Below are positions 9,660-63,497 of a stretch of 64,000 bases of DNA, one piece after another. A program made the translations under genes and the position numbers. The notes beneath the pieces were generated by a model. That model ran no database searches. It was not told where the DNA came from and saw nothing but the letters and a program-made list of their open reading frames with translations. Numbering within the stretch: the first letter of the stretch is position 1; each line of letters starts with the position of its first letter. Origin of the DNA: Rhodanobacteraceae bacterium (GTDB lineage Bacteria; Pseudomonadota; Gammaproteobacteria; Xanthomonadales; Rhodanobacteraceae); the NCBI GenBank assembly GCA_039923855.1, contig JBDTBW010000014.1, forward strand, positions 15,522-79,521, given 5' to 3'.

Positions 9660-9673
9660 TGGCAGTTGTCGTC

Positions 9674-27327: not shown

Positions 27328-27357
27328 TTGCGCCCGACGACATGCGTCGAAGGAAAT

Positions 27358-28232: not shown

Positions 28233-28439
28233 ATCTCGTTCAAAGCGCCCAAATCGACAACGGCTTGGCATTTGCCCGCGCGGGATATTGGCGCTATGTT
28301 TCGGCCGTCGCGCGGGCGCGCGGCGGGGGCCGCGATCCCTTGCAAGGAAACCAGGCGCATTGCGTGCGCCGATGGAACGTTTCATGCAAGCAGATCCGGT
28401 GTGGCGCGGCTTTCGCGCAGTCCAGGTGAGCCCAGACCC

Positions 28440-29489
28440 ATGTCCACAACGATTCTTTCGGCCGATTCCGTTGTTTCCGCGCGCGCGCGATTGCGCCTCG
28501 CCGCCGCGACTTCGTTCGCGCTGTTGCTCTGCGCTTGCGGTGGCGGTAACGCGCCACCGAACGCCAACGCCCCGGTGCCGAAGCCGGCAGCGTCCGCGCC
28601 GGCGCCAGCCGTTCCCGCGGCGGCACCCGCGCCTTCGTCCACCGTTGCGGCGGCCGAACAAGCGGCGCAGGCGGCACAGGCCAGGATGGAAACGATGAGT
28701 GTCCAACAATTGCTGGCCGAGGCGCGCACCGCGTTCGGTCAGCAGCGGCTGCTCGCGCCAAAAGGTAACAATGCCTTCGAATATTATGAAAAGGCGCTGC
28801 AAAAAGATCCGAAGAACCAGGTCGCGCAGGACGCGTTGCGCGAAGCGTTCCCGGTCGGCGCCAACATGGTCGAGCAGACGATCGGCCAGAACAATTACGA
28901 CGAGGCGCAACGCGAAATCGATTTGCTGGCCAAGGCCGACCCCAGCAATTACACGTTGACGATCCTGCGTTCCAAGCTGGAGGCCGCGAAAAGGCAACAA
29001 CAGCGCGCGGACGCATTGAAAGCCAAGCAAGCCGCCGATCTCGCCGCCAAGCAAGCCGAGATCGCCAAGGCGGCCGCGGCTGCGGCAGCCAAGGCCGCCG
29101 CGCCCCCGCCCGCACCAGCGCCCGCGCCGGTCGTCCAGCAACCGGTGGTGGAGCAGCCCAAACCCGTGCCGGTGCAAGCGGCGCCTGAGCCGCCGCCGCC
29201 GAAACCGGCAGGCGAAACGCGCGGCGCGGAGCCGATCAGCCAGGCAGCGCCGAACTATCCGCTCGAGGCCGCGCGCAATCAGACCTCGGGTTACGCGGTG
29301 GTCGAGTTCACGGTAAATGCGGATGGCTCGGTCAGCGGTGCGCGCGTCACCGACTCGCAACCGCCGCGCGTCTTCAACAGCGCCGCGATTCAAGCGGTCT
29401 CGCGCTCGCGCTACCGCCCGGCACTTAAAGACGGCCAACCGGTCTCCAGCAGTTTGCAGCGGCGCGTCGACTTCAAATTCGGGGGGTGA
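28440..29489 (+). CDS. Probable lipoprotein with a Pro/Ala-rich linker and a C-terminal TonB domain
   Basis: FALLLCACGG lipobox-like signal, APPPAPAPAPVVQQP linker, and C-terminal YPLEAARNQTSGYAVVEFTVNADGSV...RYRPALKDGQPV (TonB_C). Start at the ATG at 28440, in frame with the 28074 ORF. Confidence 0.8.
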   Translation: MSTTILSADSVVSARARLRLAAATSFALLLCACGGGNAPPNANAPVPKPAASAPAPAVPAAAPAPSSTVAAAEQAAQAAQARMETMSVQQLLAEARTAFGQQRLLAPKGNNAFEYYEKALQKDPKNQVAQDALREAFPVGANMVEQTIGQNNYDEAQREIDLLAKADPSNYTLTILRSKLEAAKRQQQRADALKAKQAADLAAKQAEIAKAAAAAAAKAAAPPPAPAPAPVVQQPVVEQPKPVPVQAAPEPPPPKPAGETRGAEPISQAAPNYPLEAARNQTSGYAVVEFTVNADGSVSGARVTDSQPPRVFNSAAIQAVSRSRYRPALKDGQPVSSSLQRRVDFKFGG

Positions 29490-38425: not shown

Positions 38426-39424
38426 ATGCGCATCCTCACAGCCAGCCTACTGACCGCCAGCTTGGCGCTGCTTTCGCCGTTGACCGCTCTTGGTCAGACG
38501 ACGCGGCATCCGGCGCGGGCGCCCGCCCAAGTAGCGCCAGTAGTGGCGCCTTCGAGCTTTGCGGGCAGCGAAGCCGATAGCGCATTGCCGGTGTGGCAAT
38601 CGCCGGACGGCCGCACCCTGACCCTGATCGCGGGCGGCGAGAGTTCGGGTTCCGCGCCCGCCTCGGGATTGCGGCTGATCGACGCGAAATCCGCCGCGGC
38701 AACGACCGGGCTGCAATTCAATCTGTCGCCGCACGTCTACGCGCGTGCCGGCGTTGGACAGCGCAGTTGGACGGCCGGCAATCCGGGCTGCCAACCCGCA
38801 CAACCGAGCGTCAAGAATGCGGTGTGTCTGGATAGCGCGCCGCTGGCGAACATGCAAAACGGCGAAGTCGGTGCGGGCTACGCCAATGATGCGCTGAAGC
38901 TCGACCTTTCGGTCGGACAGGCGCAGGTCAATGCCGAGACCACCGCGCCCGCGCTGCCGCGCGTGCTGCCGCCCGGCGCCGGCGCCGCCGCCGCCGCGCC
39001 GCTGTGGTTCCCGAACAGCACCACCAATAGCGTCAACGCGCGTGGCCAGTTGCGCGTGCTGCCCGGCACGCAACTCGATCTTGGCGCCAGCCGCGGCCGG
39101 GTGCATTTCCTGCCGGGCGCCGGCCTCATTGGCGATAACGATCTCGATCAGACCACCGTCAGCGTCGGTCTCGAACACGGGCCGATCAGCGGCGCGATCG
39201 TCGGCCACACGCTGGAGCCCGTGCTGCCCGGTGCGTCGCTCAATTCCAGCCAGCGTTGGAGCGGGGTGGATCTCGGTGTCAGCGTGCGCCTCCCGTGGCA
39301 AGGCGAGCTGAGCTTCGGCGCGCAGAACGTGTGGTCTTCCGGCAGGCAGCCGCTGATCAATCCGCAGGACCTGAGTCCCGACCAGTCGCGCGTGCCTTAC
39401 GTGCAGTATCACCAGGATCTTTGA
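38426..39424 (+). CDS. Hypothetical secreted protein, possibly an outer-membrane beta-barrel
   Basis: Signal peptide MRILTASLLTASLALLSPLTALG and alternating-polarity strands near the C-terminus. I recognise no family. Confidence 0.5.
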   Translation: MRILTASLLTASLALLSPLTALGQTTRHPARAPAQVAPVVAPSSFAGSEADSALPVWQSPDGRTLTLIAGGESSGSAPASGLRLIDAKSAAATTGLQFNLSPHVYARAGVGQRSWTAGNPGCQPAQPSVKNAVCLDSAPLANMQNGEVGAGYANDALKLDLSVGQAQVNAETTAPALPRVLPPGAGAAAAAPLWFPNSTTNSVNARGQLRVLPGTQLDLGASRGRVHFLPGAGLIGDNDLDQTTVSVGLEHGPISGAIVGHTLEPVLPGASLNSSQRWSGVDLGVSVRLPWQGELSFGAQNVWSSGRQPLINPQDLSPDQSRVPYVQYHQDL

Positions 39425-39953
39425 TCACTACAGGCTTGCTGGCGTCCACATTCAACCAGGGTGCCACAAATCACAGTGGCTGAAACCATGGCAGGTCGAT
39501 GCTTGCGACGAGCATGCAATGCTGCCGACCCGACAAAATTGTCTCGCGTCGCATTCGATCAGATTCCTCGCCGGTTATCCGTTAATTTGATCAGTCAAGC
39601 TCCATTCATTTATTCGCGCGACATACGATTTCGTCGCTTGCAATTAACACCGGTTTCACGTATTTAGGAGTCTGTCCGCTGCGGGGCGGCGATGTCCTGA
39701 ACGCACTTGGGTCCCCGCAAACACACAAGAAAACAAAGGACGGTACAGCTCAATTCTCGATATCCGGTGGGCAGTGGCGTATCGCGCCACGGGCTTGTGG
39801 CATACGCAGGCGTATGTTACAGGGGTATTCCCAAAGGGTTAGGAAGTTGTTAGCATCCGTCCCTGCCGAGGGTTATAGGTGGGCCTCGCTGGCTATTCCA
39901 GGGCGGAGCACTTGTCCCGAAACTGTGTCACACATCAGACGTTGGAGAGTGTA

Positions 39954-42953
39954 ATGAGACTTGACCGCAACGAACTTTCCAAGGCCGTGCGTATGGCTCT
40001 TTCGCTGGGTGCCGTTGCCGCCGTGGGTGCGGTGGGGACTGCCTATGCGCAAGACCAGAACACCAGCCAAGGGACCAACAACAGCCAGCCCCAGACCCTG
40101 CAGACCATCGTGGTCACCGGTTCGCACATCCGCCGCGTGGATCTGGAGACTGCAAACCCCGTCGTCGTCGTCGATGCCGCCAAGATCAAGCAAAGCGGTG
40201 CGGTGACGGTGGGTGATCTCATCAACCAACTGCCAGCCATCACGGGTTCGCCGCAAAACACCCGTGTCAACAACGGCGGCGGTACCGGGGGCACCTTCGC
40301 CAACCTGCGCGGCCTGGGTTCGGGCCGCACACTGGTACTGGTCGACGGCCATCGCGTCGTCAACAACGATCTCAACACGATCCCGACCGAAATGATCGAG
40401 CGCGTTGAGGTACTGACCGACGGCGGCGCCGTAACCTATGGTTCCGAAGCGATCGGCGGCGTCATCAACTTCATCCTGAAGAAGAATTATCAGGGCGCCG
40501 AAGCCACCATCAACTACGGCATTTCCGACCACGATGACGCCGAGCGCAAGGCCGCCAGCTTCATCTTCGGTCAGACCACCGACAAGGGCAGCATCCTTGC
40601 CGGTGTGGACTACAACAAGTTCGCCCCGGTCGGTGCGGGCAACCGCAAGTTTTCCAAGGACGCGCTGTATCTATACTACGGCAACGTCTATGCGTTCGGC
40701 TCCAGCCGTACGTTGCAGCCGCACCCTTACATCACGACCAAGGTAGTCACCCCCGACAAGATGTCGCATACGATCATCGCGCCCGGTGGCGCCGGTTTCG
40801 GTTGCGGCAGCGTGATTGGCACCATGGGCGATGGCAGTTCGACCGCCGACTATCGGTGCTATACCGGCTCGGACGCCTACAACTATCAGACCCTCAACTT
40901 CGATCTGACCCCGCAGGAGCGCACCAATGCGTTCTTCAAGGCCGATTACCAGTTGACCGACAACGTGCAGGCGTACATGGACGTGTTCCACAACAAGACC
41001 ACGTCTGCGTTCGCGATCGCGCCGATCCCGTTCGACACCAACAGCGACTTGGTCACCATTTCCAAGAACAGCCTGTACAACCCGTTCGGGGTGGATTTCG
41101 GGCCGCCGACCGCCAACAACGCGACCTCGTTCCTGGGCCCTGACGGCAAGCCGCTGCTGGCCCAGTTCAACTACCGCACCCGCTTCACCAGCCTCGGTCA
41201 GCGCCTAGGCGAGTACACGTCGGTTACCGATCAGGGCCTCTTGGGCCTGAAGGGCAACATCGGCCAGAGCAGTTGGCAGTGGGATGCCAGCTACAACTAC
41301 GGCCATTTCAGCATAGAGAAAAGGACCGTGGGTGATCCGGTGTACAACGCGGCCTTCCGCAATGCGATCGGGCCCTCCATGATCGACCCGGTCAGCGGTG
41401 CACCGATCTGCGTTGGCACCGCTGGCGATCCGGCCTCGGTGATCACGGGTTGTACGCCGATCAATATTTTCAACCAGGCGAACCCGGCCACCGCGGCACA
41501 GTTGAGACCCTTTCTGGCGACGTTCTTCGCCAATTCGTTCACCACCTTCCGCGCCTACAACCTCAGCGTCAACGGCAACCTGTTCGATCTGCCGGCGGGT
41601 TCGGTTCAGTTGGCCGCGGGCGTGGACTACCGCAAGGTGTACTCGCACGCGCAGAACGACTTTCCGACCACCATCGACCAGGATCCGAACAGCCCGGGCT
41701 TCGGTGGCTGTCAGGCGCCGCAGTCGGCTTGTACGGCTGCATTGCAGGGCGGCTTCAACGTGAAAGAGGTCTACGCCGAGTTGTTCGTGCCGATCCTGAA
41801 GGACATCCCGTTCGCGCGTTCCTTGAACGTGACCCTGGGCGATCGCTACTCCAAGTACTCGCTGGCGGGCAGCACCAACAACTACAAGGTGGCGGTGGAA
41901 TGGAAGCCGATCGATGACTTGTTGCTGCGCGGCACGGTGCAGAAGATCTTCCGCGCCCCAACCATCGGCCAGTTGTTCGCCACCCCGACCGGCAACGCGC
42001 CGGCCTTCAACGATCCCTGCATCGGCTTGTCCGCGGCCGTCTTGGCGGCACACTCCAACGCCTGCCAGAACGTCGCGCCCAACTCCACGTTCCAGGATCT
42101 GCAGGGCGGCTTGTCGCAGACCACCGGCGTGGTTTCCGGCTCGGTGTTCGCCAACTATCCGCTGAAGCCCGAGTTCGGCAAGTCGTTCGACTTTGGCTTC
42201 GTGTATGACCCGCATTACATTCCGGGCCTCTCGGTCAACGTGGACTTGTGGCGTATCTATCTGAACGACACGATCACGGTCCTCGGCGCCAACACGGTCG
42301 GGAATGTTTGCTTCGCCAACAACAGCAGCCCGTTGTGCAACTTCATCCATCGTTTCCCGAATGGTCAGGTGCACTTCATCAATCAGCCGACGGTCAATCT
42401 GGGGCGCCTGGATACCCACGGTGTCGATCTGGGCTTGGCTTACCGGGTTCCGCAGGTTAGGTTCCTGCCCGGTCAGTTCACCCTGACCGCGAACGGCACC
42501 TACGTGGCCCAGTACACCAATGACACCACGCCGGGCCAGACCGGCAGCCAGGTCGTGCATGCCGCAGGTCACTTCTACAAGGATTACGGCTCGCACCCGC
42601 GGGTACAGGGTACGGTCGGTCTGGCGTGGAAGGATGGCCCATGGGATGCTTCCTGGCGTACCCAGTACATCAGCCACGAGGAGGTCGGCAGCTTCAATCC
42701 GGCCGAAAACGAGAACGGTGAGAGCGGCGGGCAACTGTTTGCTTTCCGTGTGCCGAGTATCATCTACAACTACGCGCAGGTGGGCTATACCATCGAACCG
42801 ATCAACACGCACATCGCCTTCGGCGTGGACAACGTGTTCGACAAGCAGCCGCCGATCTTCACCCAGAGCAACGTAACCAACGCCAATACCGACGTGAGCA
42901 CCTACGACACGATCGGCCGCTTCTACTACATGCAGGCTTCGATCAAGTTCTGA
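39954..42953 (+). CDS. TonB-dependent outer-membrane receptor
   Basis: Signal peptide, TonB box/plug (TLQTIVVTGSHIRR...VLVDGHRV...IERVEVLTDGGAVTYGSEAIGGVINFILK), about 1000 aa, C-terminal ...YYMQASIKF. GGAGAG SD before the ATG at 39954. Confidence 0.95.
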   Translation: MRLDRNELSKAVRMALSLGAVAAVGAVGTAYAQDQNTSQGTNNSQPQTLQTIVVTGSHIRRVDLETANPVVVVDAAKIKQSGAVTVGDLINQLPAITGSPQNTRVNNGGGTGGTFANLRGLGSGRTLVLVDGHRVVNNDLNTIPTEMIERVEVLTDGGAVTYGSEAIGGVINFILKKNYQGAEATINYGISDHDDAERKAASFIFGQTTDKGSILAGVDYNKFAPVGAGNRKFSKDALYLYYGNVYAFGSSRTLQPHPYITTKVVTPDKMSHTIIAPGGAGFGCGSVIGTMGDGSSTADYRCYTGSDAYNYQTLNFDLTPQERTNAFFKADYQLTDNVQAYMDVFHNKTTSAFAIAPIPFDTNSDLVTISKNSLYNPFGVDFGPPTANNATSFLGPDGKPLLAQFNYRTRFTSLGQRLGEYTSVTDQGLLGLKGNIGQSSWQWDASYNYGHFSIEKRTVGDPVYNAAFRNAIGPSMIDPVSGAPICVGTAGDPASVITGCTPINIFNQANPATAAQLRPFLATFFANSFTTFRAYNLSVNGNLFDLPAGSVQLAAGVDYRKVYSHAQNDFPTTIDQDPNSPGFGGCQAPQSACTAALQGGFNVKEVYAELFVPILKDIPFARSLNVTLGDRYSKYSLAGSTNNYKVAVEWKPIDDLLLRGTVQKIFRAPTIGQLFATPTGNAPAFNDPCIGLSAAVLAAHSNACQNVAPNSTFQDLQGGLSQTTGVVSGSVFANYPLKPEFGKSFDFGFVYDPHYIPGLSVNVDLWRIYLNDTITVLGANTVGNVCFANNSSPLCNFIHRFPNGQVHFINQPTVNLGRLDTHGVDLGLAYRVPQVRFLPGQFTLTANGTYVAQYTNDTTPGQTGSQVVHAAGHFYKDYGSHPRVQGTVGLAWKDGPWDASWRTQYISHEEVGSFNPAENENGESGGQLFAFRVPSIIYNYAQVGYTIEPINTHIAFGVDNVFDKQPPIFTQSNVTNANTDVSTYDTIGRFYYMQASIKF

Positions 42954-42980
42954 TCGAGCCCGCGCAAGCGGAAACTCTCC

Positions 42981-43013
42981 AAGCCGCGCGGTGCAAGCCG
43001 CGCGGCTTTTTTC
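42981..43013 (+). terminator. Rho-independent terminator of the receptor gene
   Basis: AAGCCGCGCGG-TGCAAG-CCGCGCGGCTT, a perfect 11-bp stem followed by a T-run. Confidence 0.85.
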
Positions 43014-43059
43014 TTGTCACTCATGTTGGATGGGTGAGCAGGGCGCCAGCGTTGCAGAA

Positions 43060-44880
43060 TCAGGCAGGCACCACATCGAAAGCGATGGTCAGGCGGAAAT
43101 CCTGCTCGTCGCCGGAGAAAGGCACGGTGCCGTGCCACATCCACGATGGGAACAGCACCAGCAGCCCCGGTTCCGGGCGCACGAAATATTCGGGGGCCAA
43201 TGGCGGCCTGGTCGGGAAAGCCGGTTCGCCGAACTGCAGCCAACCTTCGCGTCCCTTGCTGGTTACTGCGGGCGGAATGCTGATGTAACAGGCCGAAGAC
43301 AGCCAGCCGTCGGGATGAAAATGGTTGAAATGATAGCCACCAGGGCGCAGATTGACCGACCACATGCCTTCGATACGATAACGGCCAGTGTTGCGGCGCC
43401 TCAACACGTCCGTGCCGTGTCCGATCGCCTGCATGTAGCGCCCAATCGGGCCGTCGATGGCCTGCGTAAAGGCGCGGATCGCTGGCGTGGTTGATTGGTC
43501 TGGCACCAGATCCGTTTGCGCGCCGTGGCGTAACGACTGACCGACCGGATGCGTGTACAGGATGCGCCGCTGCAAAAGTTCCTTGGCGAGATCATCGAGG
43601 TATGCGGCAAGGTCCGGCCATCCTTCAGGCGTGTCGATCAAACCGGGTCGCACGAATTGGCCGTAATCCGCCAGCTCTTGATAGTGCGGGTCTTCAAGCA
43701 TGCGCCATGCGGTGGCACGCATGGCGATGCCGAGGCCGTCGTCGGGATCGATCGCCAGCAAGCGCGAGGCGAACGTTTGCGCCTGTTTGGGGCGGCCCGA
43801 AGCCAGCAAAGCGTTGCCATAGAGGGTGATTGTCAACGGATTGTCGGCGACCAGAGCGCGTGCGCGTTCGGCATGCGCCAATGCCCGCTCGGCATCGCAT
43901 TTCAATGCGATTTGCGAGACGGCAATGTGCAGATCGACATTGTGCTCATCACGGGCCAAGCCCGCGTCGAGTTCCGCCAGCGCGCCCTCGGGATCGTCCG
44001 CCGCTTCCAGCAGCCGGGCCTTCACGGCGTGCAACGCGACTGCGTCCGGCGCGCGACTGAGGGCTGCATCCAGTTCACGCGCCGCAGCGTCCACATCGCC
44101 GGTACGCATCCAGATCAGCTCCATCAGATTCGTTTGTGCAGCCACGTAACCGGGAGCCAGCGCGACTGCACCGCGAAACGTGTCTTCCGCTTCGTCCAAA
44201 CGCCCCAGCGCCAGCAGTGAACGGGCCAATACAAAATGCGTTTCGGGATCGCTTGCGCCTTTGGCGATGGCTCGTCGCGCCGCCGATTCCGCTGCGGCTG
44301 GCTGCGCGCATCCGGCCAGCGCGACGGCCAGTCCGAATTCCGCGGCGCCCAGAGTCGGCGCTGCATCGAGCGTATGTTGGAAAGCCACAGCCGCGTCCGC
44401 ATGGTTGCCAAGTGCCAGCAGCGCTTGTGCACGCAGCAGAAGCAAGGGCGGCGCAAGTTGGATGCGCGTGCCGAGATCGTCGATCAAGATCATGGCGTCT
44501 TGCGCGCGCTGCTGCGCGAGCATCACCTTGGCGAGGCTCGCAATCGCCGGCACGAAAGCAGAATCGTGCCGCAACGCCTGTCGCAACGCGGCGTCTGCTT
44601 CCTGCATACGACCTTGCGAAGCCAATGCATCACCCAACAAACCATGCAAGGCGGGTACGCCGGACGCGTTGCCGATCGCAGTGCGCGCCTCACGTTCGGC
44701 GCCGGCAAAATCGCCTGTGTTCAACAATGCGCCGCCGAGCAGCCAGCGGGCCTGCACCATGCCCGGATTGACGTGCAACAGTTGCCGCAGCACGTCGCGT
44801 GCCGGCACGAACAAACCGGCCTGCATCATTTGCGTGGCGGTTTGCAACTGTTGGTGGGAAGACGGCGAAATGGTCGTCAC
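43060..44880 (-). CDS. TPR-repeat protein with a C-terminal putative 2OG-Fe(II) oxygenase domain (2OG-FeII_Oxy_5-like)
   Basis: About 400 aa of Ala/Leu-rich TPR-like repeats, then NHFHPDGWLSSACYI...LVLFPSWMWHGTVPF (HxH/D...H cupin-type motif). Confidence 0.7.
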   Translation of the reverse strand: MTTISPSSHQQLQTATQMMQAGLFVPARDVLRQLLHVNPGMVQARWLLGGALLNTGDFAGAEREARTAIGNASGVPALHGLLGDALASQGRMQEADAALRQALRHDSAFVPAIASLAKVMLAQQRAQDAMILIDDLGTRIQLAPPLLLLRAQALLALGNHADAAVAFQHTLDAAPTLGAAEFGLAVALAGCAQPAAAESAARRAIAKGASDPETHFVLARSLLALGRLDEAEDTFRGAVALAPGYVAAQTNLMELIWMRTGDVDAAARELDAALSRAPDAVALHAVKARLLEAADDPEGALAELDAGLARDEHNVDLHIAVSQIALKCDAERALAHAERARALVADNPLTITLYGNALLASGRPKQAQTFASRLLAIDPDDGLGIAMRATAWRMLEDPHYQELADYGQFVRPGLIDTPEGWPDLAAYLDDLAKELLQRRILYTHPVGQSLRHGAQTDLVPDQSTTPAIRAFTQAIDGPIGRYMQAIGHGTDVLRRRNTGRYRIEGMWSVNLRPGGYHFNHFHPDGWLSSACYISIPPAVTSKGREGWLQFGEPAFPTRPPLAPEYFVRPEPGLLVLFPSWMWHGTVPFSGDEQDFRLTIAFDVVPA

Positions 44881-44942
44881 GACGGGATGAAGGGAAATGC
44901 GATAACCATTGCGGTGGCGGTATAGTCTAGCGCCTCAATCCA

Positions 44943-46802
44943 ATGCGCACCGAGCCCATGCCAGAACCGCAAACCACCCTCGCGTCGATCCAGCAGATGC
45001 TCGCGGCGGTCGAGCAGGGGCACTTCGCGGCAGCCGAGCGCATGGTGCGTCCTTACCTCGATCTTTACCCCGAAGACGAGACGGCCTTGAGCATCCTGGG
45101 TCTGAGCCTGTTCGAGCAGGAACGTCTGAGCGAGGCAACGGAAGTTTACCAACTTGCGGCGTCACGTTTCCCGACGAATCCCGGGAATTGGGATAACCTC
45201 GGCACGACTGCGCGCAAAGCCGGACAGTTTCAGGAGGCGGAAGCCGCCTACGCCAAAGCGCTGCAAATGCAACCGGATGACCCGCGGTTTCTCTCCCACA
45301 TGGGTCTTCTGTACATCGAGTGGAAGCGGATCACCGTAGCGAAGGAGTATCTGTGGCGCGCGTACCAGCTCGATCCATCGGATTTCGAGACACGCATCTT
45401 CGGCGCCCAGATGGCACTGGAATGCGGTGATGATGCGCGCGCCAGGCAGATGCTGGACGATTGGAAACGATGGGCCGCAACGTTGGGGAGCGCATTGCAG
45501 GTGGAGCTCGCTGCGCTGTTGATCCGGCTGGGCGACAATGCGGAATGCGAAGCGTTGTTGCGCCGGCATCTGGACGATCCGGAAAGCGGCAATGCGGCGC
45601 GCGCTCGCCTGATCGTGGTTTTGGAACGATTCAATCGACTGGAGGAAGCACAGGCAATGTTGGCGCAATTGCCACCGATCGAATCTGTCACGGATACCGC
45701 ACTGGGCAACGAAATCTGCGAAGCTCAAGCAGTGGTCGCAGCGCGCGACAGCGATGTGTCACACGCCACAAGTGTGCTGAAGAGGCTACTGGATCGATCC
45801 GACGACGATCGTTGGCAGACCACGGTGTGCTTTCTCCTAGCCAAGCTTTGCGATAAGCAAAACGATTACGACGCTTGCGTGGAGTACTTGCGCAAGGCAC
45901 ACGCAAGCCAGATGGAACACACCAGCCGGTTGGTGCCGGATCTGGTTGAGCCCAGCTCCAACCCGCTCAACATCGCCAATTTCCGCGTCACCCACGAACT
46001 GTTCGAGCGCTGGAAGCCGGTCGAGGCTCCGCCGCTTGAGGACTCTCCTGTCTTCGTGGTCGGCTTTCCGCGTTCCGGCACGACCATGCTCGAACAAATG
46101 CTGGACGCGCATCCGGGCATGCGTTCGATGGACGAGCGTCCTTTCCTGCAGCGCTCGGTGGAGCGCATGCAGCAGATCGGTTTGCAATATCCGGAACAAC
46201 TCGGCGAATTGGATACCGCACAGTGCTCGACGCTGCGCGACGTTTACTGGAGCGCAGTGGCGAAGGTCTCGCAGTTGCGGCCCGGTCAGCGGCTGGTGGA
46301 TAAGAATCCATTGAGCATGTTGCGTGTCCCGATGATCTTCAGACTGTTCCCGAACGCGAAGATCATCTTCGTGATGCGTCATCCTTGCGATGTAGTGCTC
46401 AGTTGCTACATGCAGCATTTCAACGCGCCTGCGTTCACCGCGATGTGCTCGACGTTGCCGCGGCTTGCCGACGGCTATGCCCACGCGATGCGCTTCTGGC
46501 TCGATCAAGTCGCGTTGCTCAAACCACAGATATTCGAATGGCGATACGAAAGTGCGATCGAGGATTTCGACGGCAATGTAGAAAGAGTGGGGGCATTCCT
46601 CGATCTCGAAGATATCTCGCCGCTGCACCGCTTCAGCGAACACGCCCGCACCAAGGGTTATATCGGGACGCCGAGTTACGCGCAGGTCATCCAGCCGGTC
46701 TACAAGGGCGCGATGGGCCGTTGGCGGCGTTACCGCAAATACTTCGAGCCAATCCTGCCGCTGCTGGAACCGGCCTTGGAGCACTGGGGTTATGACGCCT
46801 GA
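44943..46802 (+). CDS. TPR-repeat sulfotransferase (paralog 1)
   Basis: TPR N-terminal half; PAPS 5'-PSB motif VVGFPRSGTTMLEQML; 3'-PB-like MRHPCDVVLSCY. The ATG at 44958 is an alternative start. Confidence 0.8.
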   Translation: MRTEPMPEPQTTLASIQQMLAAVEQGHFAAAERMVRPYLDLYPEDETALSILGLSLFEQERLSEATEVYQLAASRFPTNPGNWDNLGTTARKAGQFQEAEAAYAKALQMQPDDPRFLSHMGLLYIEWKRITVAKEYLWRAYQLDPSDFETRIFGAQMALECGDDARARQMLDDWKRWAATLGSALQVELAALLIRLGDNAECEALLRRHLDDPESGNAARARLIVVLERFNRLEEAQAMLAQLPPIESVTDTALGNEICEAQAVVAARDSDVSHATSVLKRLLDRSDDDRWQTTVCFLLAKLCDKQNDYDACVEYLRKAHASQMEHTSRLVPDLVEPSSNPLNIANFRVTHELFERWKPVEAPPLEDSPVFVVGFPRSGTTMLEQMLDAHPGMRSMDERPFLQRSVERMQQIGLQYPEQLGELDTAQCSTLRDVYWSAVAKVSQLRPGQRLVDKNPLSMLRVPMIFRLFPNAKIIFVMRHPCDVVLSCYMQHFNAPAFTAMCSTLPRLADGYAHAMRFWLDQVALLKPQIFEWRYESAIEDFDGNVERVGAFLDLEDISPLHRFSEHARTKGYIGTPSYAQVIQPVYKGAMGRWRRYRKYFEPILPLLEPALEHWGYDA

Positions 46803-47409
46803 TCCCCTAGAAGCTGCAACTTCCGCATCGCCTTGCACCAGGGTTGCCGATTATGTGCGCTGGTACGACGACGCCCTGCCGCGCAGCTTCTGCGAGCAAT
46901 TGATTGCGTCGTTCCGGCAGACGAGCACAAAGCAGATCAAGCGCGAGCGGGGCTGGCGCGCCGGCCTCGATGCGAGCGCGTGGACCGAACTGGACATCAC
47001 GCCATTAGCCGATCTGGCCTTGAAGGGATTTTTTTACCAGAAGATGGATGAGTACCTGGCACGCTACAACGGCGATGTGCACCTCGACATTCCGATCCCG
47101 CAGTCCACCTTGCTTGCCCCATTGCGGATCAAGCGCTATCAACCTGATGCCGGCGAGGAGTTTCAGTTGCACTTCGATTCGATTGGTGAGGTGGCCAACC
47201 GTTATCTCGTTTATCTGTGGTATCTGAACGACGTCGAGGAAGGCGGTGAAACGGAATTCGGCGGTCTCGGCATCAAGGTGCGTCCGCGCGCGGGCAGGTT
47301 GCTGATGTTCCCGCCATATTGGATGTATCAGCATGCGGGGCGGCCACCACTTACAGGAGAAAAATACATCCTGTCGACCTATATGCTGTTCCCCCCGGAG
47401 GGACGTTGA
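46792..47409 (+). CDS. Prolyl-4-hydroxylase-like 2OG-Fe(II) oxygenase (paralog A)
   Basis: RIKRYQPDAGEEFQLHFD...LWYLNDVEEGGETEF...RLLMFPPYWMYQHAGRPPLTGEKYILSTY (HxD...H...K/R). It overlaps the upstream sulfotransferase by 11 nt. Confidence 0.75.
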   Translation: MTPDPLEAATSASPCTRVADYVRWYDDALPRSFCEQLIASFRQTSTKQIKRERGWRAGLDASAWTELDITPLADLALKGFFYQKMDEYLARYNGDVHLDIPIPQSTLLAPLRIKRYQPDAGEEFQLHFDSIGEVANRYLVYLWYLNDVEEGGETEFGGLGIKVRPRAGRLLMFPPYWMYQHAGRPPLTGEKYILSTYMLFPPEGR

Positions 47410-48977
47410 TCGCTGCTGTGCGATGGTCGGTCCATTGGGAATTTCACAAGCTCGGGCAGATACGCAACGTAATGGCGCCAGCGTTCCACCGAGCGTCCAT
47501 ATACAGGTTGACGGGCCTGCCAGAGGCTGGCGGTGCCGATGCCCCTGGGTGATATGTCCGTGGCTGCTGATGCATCGAGTCGCGGCAATTCCAGCCACTC
47601 CGCCAGCTCCGCGATGACGGCCTCGGGCCTCGCGACGAATTTCTCGTAATGCACCGTGCAGATCGAGTTTGCATGCGACTTTCGCCAGTGTGTCATAAGA
47701 CGTTCGCAATCGTTCATCACGATCGCGATGTCGGCGAAATCGTAAACGTAACCTTGCACTTCTTCGGAGAATGACTGTACCCATAACGATAGCGCGTTGT
47801 CGCGTAAGTTACGCTGGCAATGGATGATCTTCGCATTGGTGAAGAGTGCCAGCATCAGATCCACGTAGCGGAAATTCAATGGCTGCTTATCGATGAACCA
47901 CTGCGCACCATCGGCGTCATCCTGCCGCAATTGCGCGTGGTATGTTGCCGCGGCGCGTTGCATCGAGATGCGCTTTGGATTACCGGCCAATTCCGGTTGC
48001 TGCGCCAGTGTCGCCAGCCAAGGCGATTCGCCGCGGTTGCACACACGTGGATAACGCGCCAGCAGTTCAGCGATCAGGGTGGTGCCCGAACGCGGCATGC
48101 CTACGATGAGGATCGGGACAAAATCAGGCGTTTGGTCGGGTCGGGAACCGATTGGCTTGGCGGCCAGCCGGGCTTCGACCGCGCGCCGCCAATGCTTGCG
48201 CGACCACCTGGTCAAGGCATGCGCCAGCGCATTGGCCTGACGAAAATACTGCGCGGCTTGCGCGTAATCGCCTATATCGTCGTGTGCCTTGCCTAGCGCA
48301 AACAGCAGGGTAGAGCGGGCCTGTTCACTCAAGTCTTTGCGTTGCAGGTGATTGCGAAATCGCCCGAAGTCGGGATGCTCCGCATCGGGGTAGCGCTGCA
48401 TCGAAGCCAGTCCAAGCGGCACGTGCCATTCGCACGCTTGGAGACTTTGCTCGAGCGCGAGTACACAATGTTCCCTTGCGCGTTCGAATTCACCAAGCTG
48501 GGATTCCAACATTCCGGCGTAGGCGTGCAGACGCGGATCGCCGGGATGCGTGGTGATCGCCGCTTCAGCAATGGCAGCGGCATCGCGTTTGCGATCGCAA
48601 TCGTCGAGCAACTCAATTGCCCGGATCGCCTCTTCCGCATCGTGCTGTCCGTGTTCGAAGCAAGTACGCATCACCGCAGCGGCGCTGCTCATGTTGCCCT
48701 GCTCCTTGAGCATCTGCGCGAGCAGGAAGGCCGAGGCGGTATCCCCCGGGTTATCCGCGAGCAAACCGCACAGGAGACTTTGGGCTTGCGCGTCACGCTG
48801 TGTCTGGCGGTAAACACCAGCCAGCGTGCGACGCAGATCGATCGACTGCGGATATTCTGTCAATCCATTGGCCAGCAGCGATTCCGCAACCGCGGATTTG
48901 CCGCGCAACATCCATTCGCGGGTTTGCTTCAGCCATTGTTGCTCGGTTTGCATATCACCCGGAAGCGTCGGGCTCAT
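47379..48977 (-). CDS. TPR-repeat sulfotransferase (paralog 2)
   Basis: ILIVGMPRSGTTLIAELL 5'-PSB; CQRNLRDNALSLW 3'-PB-like; TPR N-terminal half. Confidence 0.8.
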   Translation of the reverse strand: MSPTLPGDMQTEQQWLKQTREWMLRGKSAVAESLLANGLTEYPQSIDLRRTLAGVYRQTQRDAQAQSLLCGLLADNPGDTASAFLLAQMLKEQGNMSSAAAVMRTCFEHGQHDAEEAIRAIELLDDCDRKRDAAAIAEAAITTHPGDPRLHAYAGMLESQLGEFERAREHCVLALEQSLQACEWHVPLGLASMQRYPDAEHPDFGRFRNHLQRKDLSEQARSTLLFALGKAHDDIGDYAQAAQYFRQANALAHALTRWSRKHWRRAVEARLAAKPIGSRPDQTPDFVPILIVGMPRSGTTLIAELLARYPRVCNRGESPWLATLAQQPELAGNPKRISMQRAAATYHAQLRQDDADGAQWFIDKQPLNFRYVDLMLALFTNAKIIHCQRNLRDNALSLWVQSFSEEVQGYVYDFADIAIVMNDCERLMTHWRKSHANSICTVHYEKFVARPEAVIAELAEWLELPRLDASAATDISPRGIGTASLWQARQPVYGRSVERWRHYVAYLPELVKFPMDRPSHSSDQRPSGGNSI

Positions 48978-50554
48978 CCGGAAAATGGCGGCATATCCAA
49001 TGCCGTGCGCAAAGGATCGAGCAGCGCGCCGTAACCGGGGGCGCGCGCAGTATCGGGGCGCAACGGTTGGCGCACTTGTGTCGCGCTAGGTGAGAACACG
49101 TTTCGTTTGTTTTGATAAAAGCGCAGGCAAGCCCCTTCGAATGGCAGCTCACAAAACTCAAGCAATCCGCGGATGCTTGTCTCCGGATCGGCGATCAGGT
49201 CCTCATAGATGTGCTCATGCACATGCGAAGAATGCTCTGCGCGCCAGTAATGGATGCTGCGATCGAAGTCGCGCCAATATGCTGCGAGATCATCAAAAGT
49301 GCGTGTGTATTCGTTGCTGGCCAGATGCTGACGGTAACAGGCGAAACAGGTTTCCAGCGGATCGCGGCGGCAGCAGATGATTTTTGCTGCGGGAAGCATT
49401 GCCCGGATAGCGCCGATGTACATCCAGTTGCTCGGCAATTTGTCGACAAACATGGGTCGCTGGCTGCGCCAACGGGCAGTTCTTTGCAGGTAACGCTCGC
49501 CAAGATGTTGCCAATCTTCGGCGTGCATTTTGTCAACCCAAAGCGGAAACGGCACGAGGCGTTGATAAGATTCCTCCGTCAATGTCAATGGCAGATCAGG
49601 TAGCTCGCCCGCGCCTTGCACGCTGGAATGCGAAGTCAGAATCTGCTCCACCAACGTCGAGCCTGAACGCGGCAGGCTGACGACGAATATCGCATCGTGA
49701 CCAAGGTTTGCGTCAGGTGAATGCCGCGGTGGCGGATTGAACGAGTCGAGAAGGCCGGTGACAACAGCGGAAAATCCCTGCGCGTTCCATGTCTTTCTAC
49801 GGCGCGCAATTGCGTTGGCTTGCGCAAGCGCGGTCAGCGATTCGCTATAGCGACATTCGTCGTCCAGCCCCTTGGCCAACGCAAATCCGAGTGCGATCAG
49901 ATCGTCATCGCCCGCGCGCGGATCCCGCAAGGCACGACGGATATGTTCGATGTCGCTGACGGCCAAGCGCAGGGATTTGAGGTCGGCCAACCCCAACCAC
50001 GCGACTCCCGCCCACGGTCGTTCTGCGATCACGCGACGGTATTCGGTCTCGGCCTCTTCTATGCGATTCTCGGCCCGCAGCATGTCGCCCAGCAGGGATC
50101 GTGCGTCCATATGTCTCGGATTGATCGCTACCGCTCGTTGCAGAGCATCGATGGCTTCGGCGCGTCGCACGCAATGCGTCAGCATCACGCCGAGGTTGTA
50201 CCAGGCGTCCGCGAGGGTGGGTTGCAACTCGCAGGCACGTTTCAGCGCGGTGATTGCGCCGTCGAGATCGTTGCCAGTCCCGAGAATGCTGCCAAGTGTG
50301 TTGTGGTACAGAGGGTCATCCGGCCGCTGTGCGAGTGCGCGCCGCATCGTCGCAACAGCGGCGGCATAATCGCCACGAAGATTCAGAATGCTGGCATGCA
50401 GGCGCAAGATTTCCGGATGATCCGGATTGGACGCCAGCGCTGGAATGAGTTGCGCAGTGGCCGCATCGGCCCGGCCCGCTTCAAGCGCTTGTGCAGCCGC
50501 CACAACGTTTTGAATCGTGGCCGGACTCAAGCCCTGCAATCGCGGCGTCACCAT
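48974..50554 (-). CDS. TPR-repeat sulfotransferase (paralog 3)
   Basis: IFVVSLPRSGSTLVEQIL 5'-PSB; CRRDPLETCFACY. The ATG at 50554 is preceded by GGAGAG (the ORF-track TTG at 50593 is less likely). The stop overlaps the next start (ATGA-type 4-nt overlap). Confidence 0.8.
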   Translation of the reverse strand: MVTPRLQGLSPATIQNVVAAAQALEAGRADAATAQLIPALASNPDHPEILRLHASILNLRGDYAAAVATMRRALAQRPDDPLYHNTLGSILGTGNDLDGAITALKRACELQPTLADAWYNLGVMLTHCVRRAEAIDALQRAVAINPRHMDARSLLGDMLRAENRIEEAETEYRRVIAERPWAGVAWLGLADLKSLRLAVSDIEHIRRALRDPRAGDDDLIALGFALAKGLDDECRYSESLTALAQANAIARRRKTWNAQGFSAVVTGLLDSFNPPPRHSPDANLGHDAIFVVSLPRSGSTLVEQILTSHSSVQGAGELPDLPLTLTEESYQRLVPFPLWVDKMHAEDWQHLGERYLQRTARWRSQRPMFVDKLPSNWMYIGAIRAMLPAAKIICCRRDPLETCFACYRQHLASNEYTRTFDDLAAYWRDFDRSIHYWRAEHSSHVHEHIYEDLIADPETSIRGLLEFCELPFEGACLRFYQNKRNVFSPSATQVRQPLRPDTARAPGYGALLDPLRTALDMPPFSG

Positions 50555-50701
50555 TAATCTCTCCGAACGTTTTGCTTTCTGATTTAAATGCAAAGCGATT
50601 GTGTCATGGTTGCTGAAATCCGGGCACAGCCACCGCTAACCAAAAGGGCCGATGAGATGCACCTGCTTGGCGCCGGGAGCACCCAAAACTCAACAGCTTG
50701 G

Positions 50702-51328
50702 TCAGAACAACAAATAAGTGGAAATAATGTATTTGTCGTTGGAGCGGGGCGGCAAACCAGCATGCTGGAACATCCAGTACGGCGGAAACATGAGCAGTCG
50801 CCCCGCCCGCGCCTGGATGCGCAGGCCGAGATCGCAAAACTCCGTCTCACCTCCATCCTGCACGTCGTTGAGGTACCAGATGAATACCATATAACGATTC
50901 GAACTGTAGTCGAGCGCATCGAAATGCGGCTGGAACTGATCGCTTGCTTCTGCCGAGTAGCGCTTGATGCGAAAATTTTCCAGGCGGGATCGCAGTGGAA
51001 CCGGGATCGTCAGCGCGACCTGTTCGTTATACACGGCGAGATAATGCAATGCCCGTTCGCGGAAGTATGCATCGAAGGAGGGATCGGCCAGTTTGGTCAC
51101 ATTGAGTTCGGTCCACGCGCTTTTCCCGAGCTGGGCCATGACGCCGCGAGCGCTGCGGGTGTGAAAGCGTGAAAGATGATCGAAGGATTCGATCATGCGC
51201 TGACAGAAATCGACTTCCAGTGCGTTATCGAAGCACTGCACAAAACGGGCAAGATCGCGTGTTGCCGGCCGCCGGTCCTTGGCTGCATCCGTGGCCGAAG
51301 GCTCAGGCAAGGTCTTGCAACCGTGCAT
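50702..51328 (-). CDS. Prolyl-4-hydroxylase-like 2OG-Fe(II) oxygenase (paralog B)
   Basis: Collinear with 46792..47409: RIKRYSAEASDQFQPHFD...IWYLNDVQDGGETEF...RLLMFPPYWMFQHAGLPPRSNDKYIISTY. Confidence 0.75.
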   Translation of the reverse strand: MHGCKTLPEPSATDAAKDRRPATRDLARFVQCFDNALEVDFCQRMIESFDHLSRFHTRSARGVMAQLGKSAWTELNVTKLADPSFDAYFRERALHYLAVYNEQVALTIPVPLRSRLENFRIKRYSAEASDQFQPHFDALDYSSNRYMVFIWYLNDVQDGGETEFCDLGLRIQARAGRLLMFPPYWMFQHAGLPPRSNDKYIISTYLLF

Positions 51329-52622
51329 CGAAATCCAGGACCGCGAGAGTCAAGGCTGTCAAGGCGTCTCGTTCCTGCGGCGAAATGTCCGGGTGCCAGA
51401 CATCGAAGATCAAGGCAAGCGCTTGCCCATCGCTTGCGGCAGCGTATTCGTACTCGAAACTCGGGTCGAATATAAAGGACTCGCCCGCCCTCAATTCGCG
51501 TGACTCCCCGCCCACGGTGACTTGCAAAGGTGCGCTACCGGAAAAAGCAACAACGATGCTGCAAAAAGCATTGGTGCGACCGCGGCGTGGGGTTGAGCGG
51601 GCACCCGATTGCAGCGCGATGATGACGGCGTCGGGGCCGTAGCCGGGGATATGTATCAGCGGTGTCGAGTCGATTGACGCGAGCAAGTGGGGAGCGTGAC
51701 GACGAACTGTGTCGTGCAATAAACCGCGCTGGTACAAAAAGACATATTGCTCCTTTGCCCGCAGTGCGTTGGCGCTGTCGTTCGCGGTCATCGCTTCCAG
51801 GCTGAAAAGCGACGGTCCGGAAGGGCCCTCGCTGGCGGACAGACAGGAAAGCGCTTCCTTGTCCTGCAACGACATGCGTGCAGCGCAATCATCCAGCCAA
51901 TCGAAAGACTGGGGGTCGTGAAAACATGTTGCGCCCAGTTCGGGGAGATAGAGAAATGTCGGCCGCTGACGCAGATCGGCTGGCGGTTCGGTTCGGTCGA
52001 GCAGATAAGTCGCCAAGGCGGCATCGACACGGCCCATACGCACCGCATTGATGCCGCGGCGAAAAGGCGCCAGCGGGGCTTCGAACAGATTGCGTCTGCC
52101 AGTCGCCACGTATTGCATCGCATGCTGCACGAGACGGTGCAGACCAGGTTCGGTGGTTTGATCGCTCAGCCATTGCCCGGTTGACTGCGCATCGAGAATG
52201 GCGCGGAAGTAATGCAGTAGCGCGGCTTCCGGTCGATCATCCAATTCGAACACGTTGGCGAGCAGCAGACGCGCCGTCGTATTGCGGCCTTGGGTCAGCT
52301 CCAAGGCGCGAATGAGTACATAACGCGCCTCATCCATGCGGTCTCCACTACGATAGGCAACCCCCAATTCCAGCAACACCCCTATGTCGTTGCGGTCGGC
52401 TTGGGCGGCGCGGCTGAGCAAGGCCACCGCTTCGCCCGGATCGCCGCGCGAAAGCGCGGCATTGGCAAGAAACCGCAGTGCTTCGACCTGATCGGGCTCG
52501 ACAGCGGCAACGTTGCGGTAAGCCTGCTCGGCCTCGACCAGACGGCCTTGTTTAAGGTGCGTACGCGCGGCTCCGAGCTCGCGATTTGTCGATTCGAAAG
52601 AGAAAGAAGTATCCGAGGGCAT
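51303..52622 (-). CDS. TPR-repeat protein with a C-terminal aspartyl/asparaginyl beta-hydroxylase-like domain (catalytic residues apparently degenerate)
   Basis: The C-terminus ...LQSGARSTPRRGRTNAF...ESFIFDPSFEYEYAA...LALIFDVWHPDISPQERDAL aligns with the AspH/LpxO fold (PHTGPTN...FDDSFEHE...RLIFIVDVWHP). It overlaps the next gene by 26 nt. Confidence 0.7.
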   Translation of the reverse strand: MPSDTSFSFESTNRELGAARTHLKQGRLVEAEQAYRNVAAVEPDQVEALRFLANAALSRGDPGEAVALLSRAAQADRNDIGVLLELGVAYRSGDRMDEARYVLIRALELTQGRNTTARLLLANVFELDDRPEAALLHYFRAILDAQSTGQWLSDQTTEPGLHRLVQHAMQYVATGRRNLFEAPLAPFRRGINAVRMGRVDAALATYLLDRTEPPADLRQRPTFLYLPELGATCFHDPQSFDWLDDCAARMSLQDKEALSCLSASEGPSGPSLFSLEAMTANDSANALRAKEQYVFLYQRGLLHDTVRRHAPHLLASIDSTPLIHIPGYGPDAVIIALQSGARSTPRRGRTNAFCSIVVAFSGSAPLQVTVGGESRELRAGESFIFDPSFEYEYAAASDGQALALIFDVWHPDISPQERDALTALTLAVLDFDARLQDLA

Positions 52623-63270: not shown

Positions 63271-63281
63271 GTGTCCAACAA

Positions 63282-63400
63282 CCCATCATGACCGGCTGAG
63301 GGACAGGCCCTTTGAAGCCGGGGCAACCCGCGCGGAATCGCCCGCGCAAGGTGCCAAGTCCTGCGGAGATCCGGTTCAGGGCCGGATCGCCGGGAGATGG
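63282..63400 (+). promoter_or_regulatory. SAM-I (S-box) riboswitch in the metB leader
   Basis: CCATCATGACCGGCTGAGGGACAGGCCCTTTGAAGCCGGGGCAACC[P3 hairpin CGCGCGG-AATC-GCCCGCGC]AAGGTGCCAAGTCCTGC...GAGATGG matches the S-box core (ATCA.GA..GG..GAGGGA..GGCCC..TGAA.CC..GCAACC...GGTGC.AA.TCC...AGATG). P1 pairs CCATC with GATGG. Confidence 0.8.
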
Positions 63401-63497
63401 TTCGAAGCGTGGGCGCGCGGGCACTCCTCCCTTCGCGCGTCCGCGCCGAGACCTCCGACCGCCGCATGGACGCCGATGCCACGGGCCGGAGATCGCG

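Follow-up and report, generated by a model that had tools for sequence, protein, structure and literature searches.

What might a set of seven enzymes act upon when their genes lie packed directly behind that of a TonB-dependent receptor (TBDR)? The question is raised by a block at positions 39954-52622 of a 64-kb stretch of DNA (the whole of which we call the window) from a metagenome-assembled genome (MAG) of the Rhodanobacteraceae, a soil bacterium. Here, the receptor gene and its strong terminator are followed by seven genes, labelled A to G (Table 1), that encode three sulfotransferases fused to tetratricopeptide repeats (TPRs; B, D and E), two small oxygenases resembling prolyl 4-hydroxylases (P4Hs; C and F), a TPR-fused oxygenase of another family (A) and a TPR protein with a domain like that of AspH (G). 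An initial annotation, made from the letters alone, had taken the block for a hydroxylating and sulfating system with no visible substrate; the eight genes that it listed are all present where it placed them, as judged by open reading frame (ORF) listing and Pfam. The explanation that we favour, tentatively and at somewhat less than an even chance, is that these enzymes add sulfate and hydroxyl groups to a polypeptide that is yet to be exported, the adjacent receptor being the likeliest target; modification of a polypeptide ahead of export is favoured by the families to which the enzymes belong, by their TPR arrays, and by the recurrence of surface-protein genes beside their relatives.

Taking the sulfotransferases first, residues 366-597 of B align with residues 62-299 of the protein-tyrosine sulfotransferase 8w5z (E = 1e-12), a span that takes in the whole catalytic domain, with human TPST1 and TPST2 as next-best matches (1e-11 to 1e-9). 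The alignment with the TPSTs brings together a PRSGTT loop, the catalytic Glu, the lysine of a DKxP motif, an Arg and the C-terminal signature S..QV.QP..GA..W, the aligned motifs of B and 8w5z being DER/GEET, DKNP/NKDP and SYAQVIQP/STDQVIKP. Within the loop for 3'-phosphoadenosine 5'-phosphosulfate (PAPS), residues P376, R377, S378, G379 and T381 are invariant in B, D and E and align to the TPST loops, as does the equally invariant R479; E398, K454, S578, Q581, Q584 and P585 are also the same in all three. The 5'-phosphosulfate loop and 3'-phosphate-binding Arg/Ser of the TPST/RaxST type are present, in other words, together with its catalytic Glu and Lys and its C-terminal Ser-x2-Gln-Val-x-x-Pro. 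Pairwise identity is only 23-25% (23% for D against B) and, since the catalytic residues are invariant despite this divergence, we regard B, D and E as old paralogues that, on their sequences, are all apparently catalytically active. The motifs first read by eye (PRSGTT in B and D, PRSGST in E, HFD...QHAG in C and F) are all there, and the assignments to Sulfotransfer_3, 2OG-FeII_Oxy_3/5, Asp_Arg_Hydrox and TPR families hold throughout in Pfam scans of the window ORFs (NCBIfam also being scored for the receptor and A).

The PF13469 fold, PRSGTT loop, catalytic Glu/Lys/Arg and C-terminal S..QV.QP are shared with RaxST of Xanthomonas oryzae and with TPST1/2, and the enzymes resemble RaxST further in being, by prediction, cytoplasmic proteins that would act before export. 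RaxST and the TPSTs have no TPRs, however, whereas B, D and E carry an N-terminal array of 280-360 residues; the block differs again in having three divergent paralogues, of predicted activity, whose genes are grouped with those of oxygenases and of a TBDR. Sequence searches relate the arrays in B and G to those of TPR-fused O-GlcNAc transferases (OGT, and XcOGT of Xanthomonas); the TPR arrays of the block may serve to hold an unfolded polypeptide.

C and F are 49% identical to each other, and in 16 family members that include both of them the residues H127, D129, H181 and K191 (HxD...H...K) are invariant; the iron triad and 2-oxoglutarate (2OG)-binding Lys/Arg of a peptidyl prolyl 4-hydroxylase are retained. 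The profile of the C family matches the Bacillus anthracis P4H at 2e-9. An AlphaFold2 model of C (pLDDT 81.3, pTM 0.82) has the P4H fold: in Foldseek, peptidyl prolyl hydroxylases make up nearly all of the top 50 PDB matches, the best of which—the PBCV-1 viral, B. anthracis, Chlamydomonas, human and Pseudomonas P4Hs, and PHD2—have E-values of 2e-11 to 4e-7, at TM-scores (0.5-0.66) that are moderate only. Judging from this model, C is predicted to be a peptidyl-prolyl-4-hydroxylase-like oxygenase, with a proline in a polypeptide as its putative target. The earlier expectation of a protein or peptide substrate thus finds support on both sides, the sulfotransferases matching the full TPST domain and C being P4H-like by sequence and by fold.

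The structural neighbours of C also include P4Hs that hydroxylate EF-Tu (4iw3 and 5v7y; cf. the Pseudomonas and Bacillus P4Hs), which speaks for a different explanation, namely that the enzymes modify unrelated cytoplasmic proteins, translation factors for example, and that the receptor stands beside them through shared regulation or inherited synteny. We consider this improbable, for reasons of gene order given below.

Each of the P4H-like genes overlaps the gene of a TPR protein, B running into C by 11 nt (46792-46802) and G into F by 26 nt (51303-51328); D and E overlap by 4 nt (48974-48977). These overlaps are as first described, and the genes are tightly packed in the manner of operons, but the divergent gap between A and B (44881-44942), given previously as 77 bp, measures 62 bp. 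From the overlaps we infer that C may be translationally coupled to B, and F to G; because each TPR-less P4H gene overlaps a TPR gene, the arrangement suggests P4H/TPR-protein pairs in which the TPR partner binds the substrate. Collagen P4H has a TPR-like peptide-binding domain of its own for this task. C and F share its fold and its iron/2OG site but have no such domain, and would instead borrow the TPRs of their coupled partners, C those of B and F those of G.

In G, TPR families match residues 17-140 and Asp_Arg_Hydrox residues 292-411, giving the TPR-then-oxygenase architecture of AspH (human AspH matches at about 1e-7). Compared with the human enzyme, though, G has Arg for His679, Tyr for His725 and Ala for Arg735, and its orthologues carry variable residues at these three positions. 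With both iron-binding histidines and the 2OG-binding arginine replaced, G is predicted to be catalytically inactive and is probably a pseudoenzyme, a non-catalytic TPR protein; the description of it as a TPR plus AspH-like protein stands as a domain match, but probably not as an active oxygenase. A second, canonical type of TPR-AspH, found in other loci, retains PH..N and F.HEAWN. As for A, it scores 77.4 bits against PF13759 (cut-off 27) and 39.1 bits against NCBIfam TIGR02466 (cut-off 62.5); the nearest PDB sequences, 3bvc and 2rg4, are uncharacterised, and an HxD-like motif (HPD) with a distal His can be picked out by eye only.

None of the seven has a signal peptide or a transmembrane segment. 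The former had been claimed already and is borne out by hydropathy, the N-terminal 12-residue maximum being at most 1.26 in the enzymes, as against 2.15 in the TBDR and 1.88 in a secreted protein encoded upstream of it. We thus predict that all are cytoplasmic, unlike AspH and collagen P4H, which are luminal. Under the explanation favoured here, tyrosine sulfation and the hydroxylation of proline (and perhaps of other residues) would precede Sec export of the substrate, most likely the adjacent receptor, and would take place in the cytoplasm, to which PAPS is confined. Hydroxylation need not come first, since TPST-like enzymes sulfate the phenol of tyrosine; the earlier suggestion that a hydroxyl group is created and then sulfated is not implied by the enzymes and is pure conjecture.

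How closely, then, are these enzymes tied to the receptor? A scan with the C family, one genome being kept per species, gave 335 relatives of C; the best 80 of these, all from Xanthomonadales and neighbouring orders, supplied the loci for synteny, onto which the window proteins were mapped to define the conserved gene order. A core recurs: TBDR, conserved hairpin terminator, B-like TPR-sulfotransferase, P4H. Forty-one loci are evaluable, with the P4H gene flanked by 6 kb or more on either side (a receptor being counted if no more than 9 kb away); a TBDR lies within 9 kb in 38, and in 33 it is directly followed by a co-oriented TPR-sulfotransferase. The 11-nt overlap between sulfotransferase and P4H genes is the modal value (21 of the 41). 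Receptor and sulfotransferase stay adjacent even when the P4H gene lies on the other strand, an arrangement met with in metagenome contigs and in loci of the Steroidobacteraceae and Hydrocarboniphaga types.

This adjacency, which survives rearrangement and is met with in different orders, counts against the modification of unrelated cytoplasmic proteins, as do its recurrence with unrelated TBDRs in Alphaproteobacteria and Alteromonadales and the conserved terminator, whose place right ahead of the sulfotransferase start codon speaks for co-transcription. In favour of such targets, three of the 41 loci keep sulfotransferase and P4H with no TBDR nearby, and the synteny counts come mostly from one order, so that kinship inflates them.

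Around the core the gene content is fluid. A, D, E, F and G vary between loci, A being confined to a subset, and the canonical TPR-AspH joins the core in many lineages. Inspection by eye of the recurrent ORF clusters in the related loci, eight of which were tested with hidden Markov models (HMMs), added further TPR-sulfotransferases, TPR-less sulfotransferases (PF00685, PF03567 and a weak PF13469 match below the Pfam cut-off), AspH-like and other PF13640 oxygenases (among them one in Dokdonella-type loci that is PiuC-like by eye) and a weak methyltransferase match. Conservation extends, therefore, to the order TBDR, TPR-sulfotransferase, P4H, and not to the seven-gene set as a unit. If the substrate is a surface-exposed protein, the variable accessory enzymes would decorate it in a strain-specific way.

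The terminator in this core, picked up by a terminator scan, is a hairpin (42981-43008) with a 12-bp stem of which nine pairs are GC, followed by a T-run. The self-complementary octamer CCGCGCGG, present twice, makes up the stem (42984-43005). The pattern CCGCGCGG-N3-8-CCGCGCGG occurs once in the window, against 0.03 expected; 51 of the 80 related loci likewise have a single copy, in each case shortly 3' of the TBDR gene, and none is present elsewhere in window or loci; compensatory variants of the stem are found in three loci (L041, L062 and L077). Such conservation of sequence across family-level divergence is unusual for a plain terminator. In the related loci the sulfotransferase usually starts a few tens of bases past the T-run, starts there being those of the gene caller, which sometimes over-extends them; this leaves little room for a separate sulfotransferase promoter, and we take it that the abundant receptor transcript is normally extended, by read-through of the terminator, into the enzyme genes, which would be expressed less strongly than the receptor itself. 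In this window and its closest relatives A is inserted in the opposite orientation between receptor and B, so that B-C and G-F-E-D must here be transcribed separately.

Distant relatives of the TPR-sulfotransferases were sought by searching B against annotated plasmids, and 17 genus-level contexts were read. In 11-12 of these the sulfotransferase lies beside the gene of an exported surface protein; five have no such neighbour, and Komagataeibacter is marginal. TBDRs are one class of neighbour: in Asticcacaulis the order is TBDR, sulfotransferase-2, AspH-domain protein, TPR-sulfotransferase; in two Pseudoalteromonas species TBDR, sulfotransferase; and in Novosphingobium capsulatum TBDR, sterol-desaturase-family protein, sulfotransferase. 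The receptors in these three genera belong to subfamilies unrelated to that of the window, and among the plasmid contexts examined the TBDR-linked sulfotransferases of Asticcacaulis and Novosphingobium are those closest to E (31-37% identity). The link to a TBDR is thus conserved in Xanthomonadales and recurs, with unrelated receptors, in Caulobacterales, Sphingomonadales and Alteromonadales. Elsewhere the neighbour is an autotransporter (Thalassospira, Pacificitalea and, two genes away, Azospirillum; on Kluyvera and Enterobacter sp. 638 plasmids the TPR-sulfotransferase keeps company with both a GT8 glycosyltransferase and an autotransporter), a type I secretion system with a calcium-binding protein (Sulfitobacter) or flagellin (Paroceanicella). 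On a Comamonas endophytica plasmid (NZ_CP106882.1, 508472-524013; locus L168) a giant cadherin-domain protein, an 878-aa TPR-sulfotransferase, TolC, an ABC transporter, HlyD and the adenylyl-sulfate kinase CysC are encoded in an operon-like row, apparently all that would be needed to sulfate an adhesin and secrete it.

The adhesins AIDA-I, TibA and HMW1 are glycosylated in the cytoplasm by adjacently encoded enzymes (Aah, TibC and HMW1C), and by analogy we propose the same logic here, an enzyme that modifies a neighbouring surface protein before it leaves the cytoplasm. The parallel, drawn from gene order only, has its differences: there (as with OGT) the modification is glycosylation and the neighbour an adhesin, whereas here it would be sulfation and hydroxylation, beside a TBDR. 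RaxST, for its part, is reported to sulfate the outer-membrane protein Omp1X in addition to RaxX (as stated in PMC4892823). Judged by the contexts seen elsewhere, the adjacent TBDR is a candidate, and the view that the block has no visible substrate may be wrong.

The receptor-linked contexts lend themselves to another reading, in which the receptor imports an external compound that the cytoplasmic enzymes then hydroxylate and sulfate for its catabolism, detoxification or retention. TBDR genes of the Xanthomonadales are often grouped with enzymes that act on the imported substrate (carbohydrate utilisation, or CUT, loci, as in Xanthomonas), and a hydroxylase with a sulfotransferase behind a TBDR does recur, be the hydroxylase P4H-like, AspH-like (Asticcacaulis) or of the sterol-desaturase family (Novosphingobium). 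Yet no inner-membrane transporter, periplasmic binding protein or regulator recurs in the roughly 80 related loci, the enzymes are most closely related to ones with polypeptide substrates, and TPR arrays are unusual in small-molecule enzymes; PAPS-dependent sulfation is costly, moreover, and we know of no case in which it serves as a catabolic step. We hold this explanation to be improbable.

Neighbourhoods with classical 2OG-Fe(II) dioxygenases (some TPR-fused), sulfotransferases and a TonB-like receptor were described in 2010 by Iyer, Abhiman, de Souza and Aravind, and were predicted to modify peptides or metabolites, with a siderophore-like metabolite or co-encoded collagen-like/tail-collar proteins as proposed substrates (PMC2938197). 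The statement in the initial annotation that this gene combination has no characterised function needs amending to that extent: the type of neighbourhood was on record, while none has been characterised experimentally, and in the searchable literature we found no characterised orthologue of the cluster beyond the 2010 prediction. The block shares all three components with those neighbourhoods, and also a link to phages, the dioxygenases having relatives in T4-like cyanophages and the distant relatives of C being phage genes likewise. It differs in that tryptophan halogenase, SapC, JmjC, prenyltransferase and non-ribosomal peptide synthetase (NRPS), which they typically add, are neither among the window ORFs nor recognised in the related-locus ORF clusters inspected by eye (eight HMM-tested), and in that neither type of proposed substrate is encoded here. 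What appears to be new is the core of TBDR, terminator, TPR-sulfotransferase and P4H, the inactive AspH relative, and the recurrence of the sulfotransferases beside diverse surface-protein genes.

That published prediction (PMC2938197) supports the main rival explanation: the enzymes would tailor a secreted peptide or amino-acid metabolite—siderophore-like, a metallophore, or a ribosomally synthesised and post-translationally modified peptide, its scaffold or precursor being encoded elsewhere—which the TBDR re-imports. Methanobactin operons provide a real precedent, co-encoding the TonB-dependent transporter MbnT and the sulfotransferase MbnS together with a ribosomal peptide that is modified (PMC3621798), and the variable sets of enzymes resemble the diversification of siderophore clusters. 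MbnS, however, is a PF00685 enzyme with no TPRs, unlike B, D and E (PF13469 plus TPR), and the genes that define methanobactin (MbnA, MbnB, MbnC, a MATE exporter and regulators) are all absent here. Across the approximately 80 loci no precursor ORF, scaffold-biosynthesis gene, NRPS or polyketide synthase, MbnB/C-like enzyme, exporter or peptidase is conserved, and upstream of the receptor there is neither a Fur box nor a known riboswitch. The TBDRs beside sulfotransferases in other lineages are of unrelated subfamilies, and tailoring of a receptor ligand would leave unexplained why the same sulfotransferase family stands beside autotransporters, type I adhesins and flagellin. On balance we judge it unlikely.

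A hidden precursor peptide was looked for in particular, by a survey of small ORFs across the loci and of ORFs upstream of the receptor, and no candidate emerged: the 1,897 small ORFs gave only out-of-frame or antisense shadows of coding genes, none of them conserved, and the ORFs of at least 20 aa upstream of the receptor look random. Nor does Pfam annotation of the remaining window ORFs reveal a PAPS-synthesis gene, or an exporter or peptidase tied to the block, in keeping with what had been noted before. The arrangement is therefore not that of RaxX-RaxST-RaxA-RaxB, as previously stated; a raxX-like precursor and RaxA/RaxB-like type I secretion genes are absent from the window and from the 80 related loci. 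Fiu-YbiX and PiuA-PiuC resemble the block in that a TBDR adjoins a small 2OG-FeII_Oxy_3 (PF13640) oxygenase; they differ in that no Fur box is found here and a sulfotransferase always stands between receptor and oxygenase, and in that C and F lie closer to P4Hs than to 3dkq, a structure of PiuC type.

Returning to modification of the receptor before its export, the following weigh against it, along with the three loci that have no nearby TBDR. The substrate is assigned by guilt by association. The plasmid survey is small, its contexts were not chosen blind, its gene tables are incomplete and it has no background rate. In the related loci and on plasmids, some neighbours belong to the Sulfotransfer_1, Sulfotransfer_2 and sterol-desaturase families, which usually act on small molecules, glycans or lipids. 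CurM, a Sulfotransfer_3 enzyme with a non-protein substrate, is also a match to B, albeit a weaker one. An alignment of 35 sulfotransferase-linked receptors, inspected for a telltale motif, has ordinary TBDR conservation only, no modified residue or recognition motif being identified in the receptor, and the literature searched yielded no report of a sulfated or hydroxylated TBDR. Finally, one genome has three TBDR paralogues equally similar to that of the window, with the enzymes beside only one, so that the receptor subfamily alone does not predict the module.

The features of the block and of the region just upstream are collected in Table 1.

Table 1. Coordinates of the receptor, the seven enzymes and associated elements in the 64-kb window
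Feature	Position	Strand	Details
Secreted protein 'up332'	38426-39424	+	no Pfam match; signal-peptide-like N-terminus
Promoter-like element and ~100-nt 5' leader of TBDR gene	39819-39953	+	TTCCCA-17 nt-TAGCAT
TonB-dependent receptor (TBDR)	39954-42953	+	999 aa; Pfam Plug 4.7e-23, barrel 7.8e-30
Intrinsic terminator	42981-43017	+	stem from two CCGCGCGG copies, then T-run
A, TPR + 2OG-FeII_Oxy_5 oxygenase	43060-44880	-	606 aa; PF13759 1.2e-21 + TPR families; accessory
B, TPR + TPST-like sulfotransferase	44943-46802	+	619 aa; Sulfotransfer_3 4e-34; core gene
C, P4H-like 2OG oxygenase	46792-47409	+	205 aa; 2OG-FeII_Oxy_3 (PF13640) 3e-11; core gene
D, TPR + TPST-like sulfotransferase	47379-48977	-	532 aa; Sulfotransfer_3 2e-32; accessory
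E, TPR + TPST-like sulfotransferase	48974-50593	-	539 aa from TTG at 50593; Sulfotransfer_3 2e-39; accessory
F, second P4H-like oxygenase	50702-51328	-	208 aa; PF13640 3e-11; accessory
G, TPR + AspH-like domain	51303-52622	-	439 aa; Asp_Arg_Hydrox 2e-11; accessory

For E, an ATG 13 codons downstream of the TTG at 50593 offers an alternative start. The block is less GC-rich than its surroundings, as had been suspected by eye: 58-60% against 62-65% elsewhere in 2-kb windows, and 0.63-0.73 against 0.74-0.83 in the flanks for the GC fraction at third codon positions, with the receptor (0.83) the highest of the region. The gene for phosphoenolpyruvate carboxykinase (PEPCK) comes after G. In many loci an extracytoplasmic function sigma factor, an anti-sigma factor and a DUF4097 protein stand beside the module; we judged this trio, absent from the window, to be neighbouring synteny near PEPCK.

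The receptor has a signal peptide and a TonB box but no signalling domain that Pfam detects, and it reaches the cut-off of no specific NCBIfam subfamily. The promoter-like element and leader upstream of its gene are conserved in sequence in 27 loci from several genera (L018:395-504 and L050:1106-1218, for example), with invariant blocks CUGCCGAGG and UGUCCCGAA and the Shine-Dalgarno sequence UUGGAGAG. Whilst UGUCCCGAA (UCCCGA) is able to pair with UUGGAGAG, the energy is weak and there is no covariation; a regulatory role for the leader is only a possibility. Known riboswitches and leaders were sought with Rfam, which gives no match in 39300-40100 at either threshold, the 530-bp region upstream of the receptor included. 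Iron regulation was considered too, but the regions upstream of the receptors match the 19-bp Fur-box consensus no better than shuffled sequence does (mean 11.0): the window reaches 10/19 at best, and the best matches of 37 other loci range over 8-12/19.

Directly upstream of the TBDR, homologues of the secreted protein up332 (which has a beta-strand-like repeat pattern, by eye) are present in approximately 25 loci from many genera, and all end in PY[VI]QY[HR]Q[DV]L (QDL in 18 of 19 aligned). This near-invariant C-terminus made up332 a possible general substrate; it is absent, however, from whole clades that keep the module (Rhodanobacter/Dyella and Steroidobacter-type loci), and from its distribution we consider its membership of the system doubtful.

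The two enzyme-less receptor paralogues (L184 and L185, on contig_21163 of MAG MFD05442.bin.1.13) are each preceded by an AraC-type regulator, with a Trans_reg_C/Tricorn/PD40-type protein further upstream of each, and one adjoins a peptidase M2 gene; these neighbours hint weakly at a role for this receptor subfamily in dealing with peptides.

Where identity falls below about 40%, the genes related to C belong to T4-like phages and stand alone. P4H-anchored synteny in distant taxa was set aside for this reason, and the receptor-linked P4H clade is confined to Xanthomonadales-like Gammaproteobacteria. At approximately 35% identity (L081-L085, all metagenome contigs) the relatives are single genes in T4-like phage genomes, with phoH on one side and gp59/gp32 on the other, or else immediately behind uvsX, a RecA-like gene.

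Elsewhere in the window, some 10 kb upstream of the receptor, the ORF at 28074-29489 (+) encodes 471 aa with a TonB domain (3e-19) at the C-terminus; a composition-based gene caller preferred an overlapping antisense ORF, and the frame is uncertain. A MetJ-family repressor lies at 27328-27864. A SAM (S-adenosylmethionine) riboswitch (RF00162; 71.8 bits, E = 8e-15) at 63280-63403 (+) lies just ahead of the ORF of a Cys/Met-metabolism enzyme dependent on pyridoxal phosphate (called as 63312-63998), the true start of which must be downstream of the aptamer. At 3-11869 (-/+) is a cluster for the modification of a surface glycan or lipid, with a DegT-family aminotransferase, several methyltransferases (one FkbM-type), a GNAT, GT2 and GT4 glycosyltransferases, an AMP-binding enzyme and an LPG_synthase_TM protein, interrupted at 6656-8905 by the gene of a reprolysin-like metallopeptidase (M12B, 749 aa) that carries FG-GAP repeats. 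Toxin-antitoxin-type genes, for a PIN-domain protein (11882-12301, -) and a ParE-family toxin (15734-16027, -), flank those of electron transfer flavoprotein alpha/beta.

To our knowledge, RaxST is essentially the one enzyme from which the sulfation of protein tyrosines has become known in bacteria, and for the hydroxylation of prolines in proteins there are a few cases. In its widest form our proposal would be that of a widespread, hitherto unrecognised Gram-negative surface system, in which TPR-guided TPST-like enzymes, joined here by P4H-like oxygenases, modify adjacently encoded exported proteins in the cytoplasm before secretion; from the gene neighbourhoods described this is possible, if on the unlikely side. 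Were it true, the targets would include TBDRs, autotransporters, type I secretion adhesins and flagellin, and their modifications would be to bacteria what sulfotyrosine and hydroxyproline on extracellular proteins are to animals and plants, the variable enzyme sets giving a strain-specific surface chemistry of relevance to ligand binding and to recognition by phages and bacteriocins. Should an imported ligand be tailored instead, these loci would point to peptide-like compounds, sulfated and hydroxylated, of a family not yet known; should the adjacent surface proteins be the substrates, they would represent a new layer of bacterial surface chemistry, one that bears on nutrient receptors, on adhesion, and on recognition by phage, bacteriocin and host.

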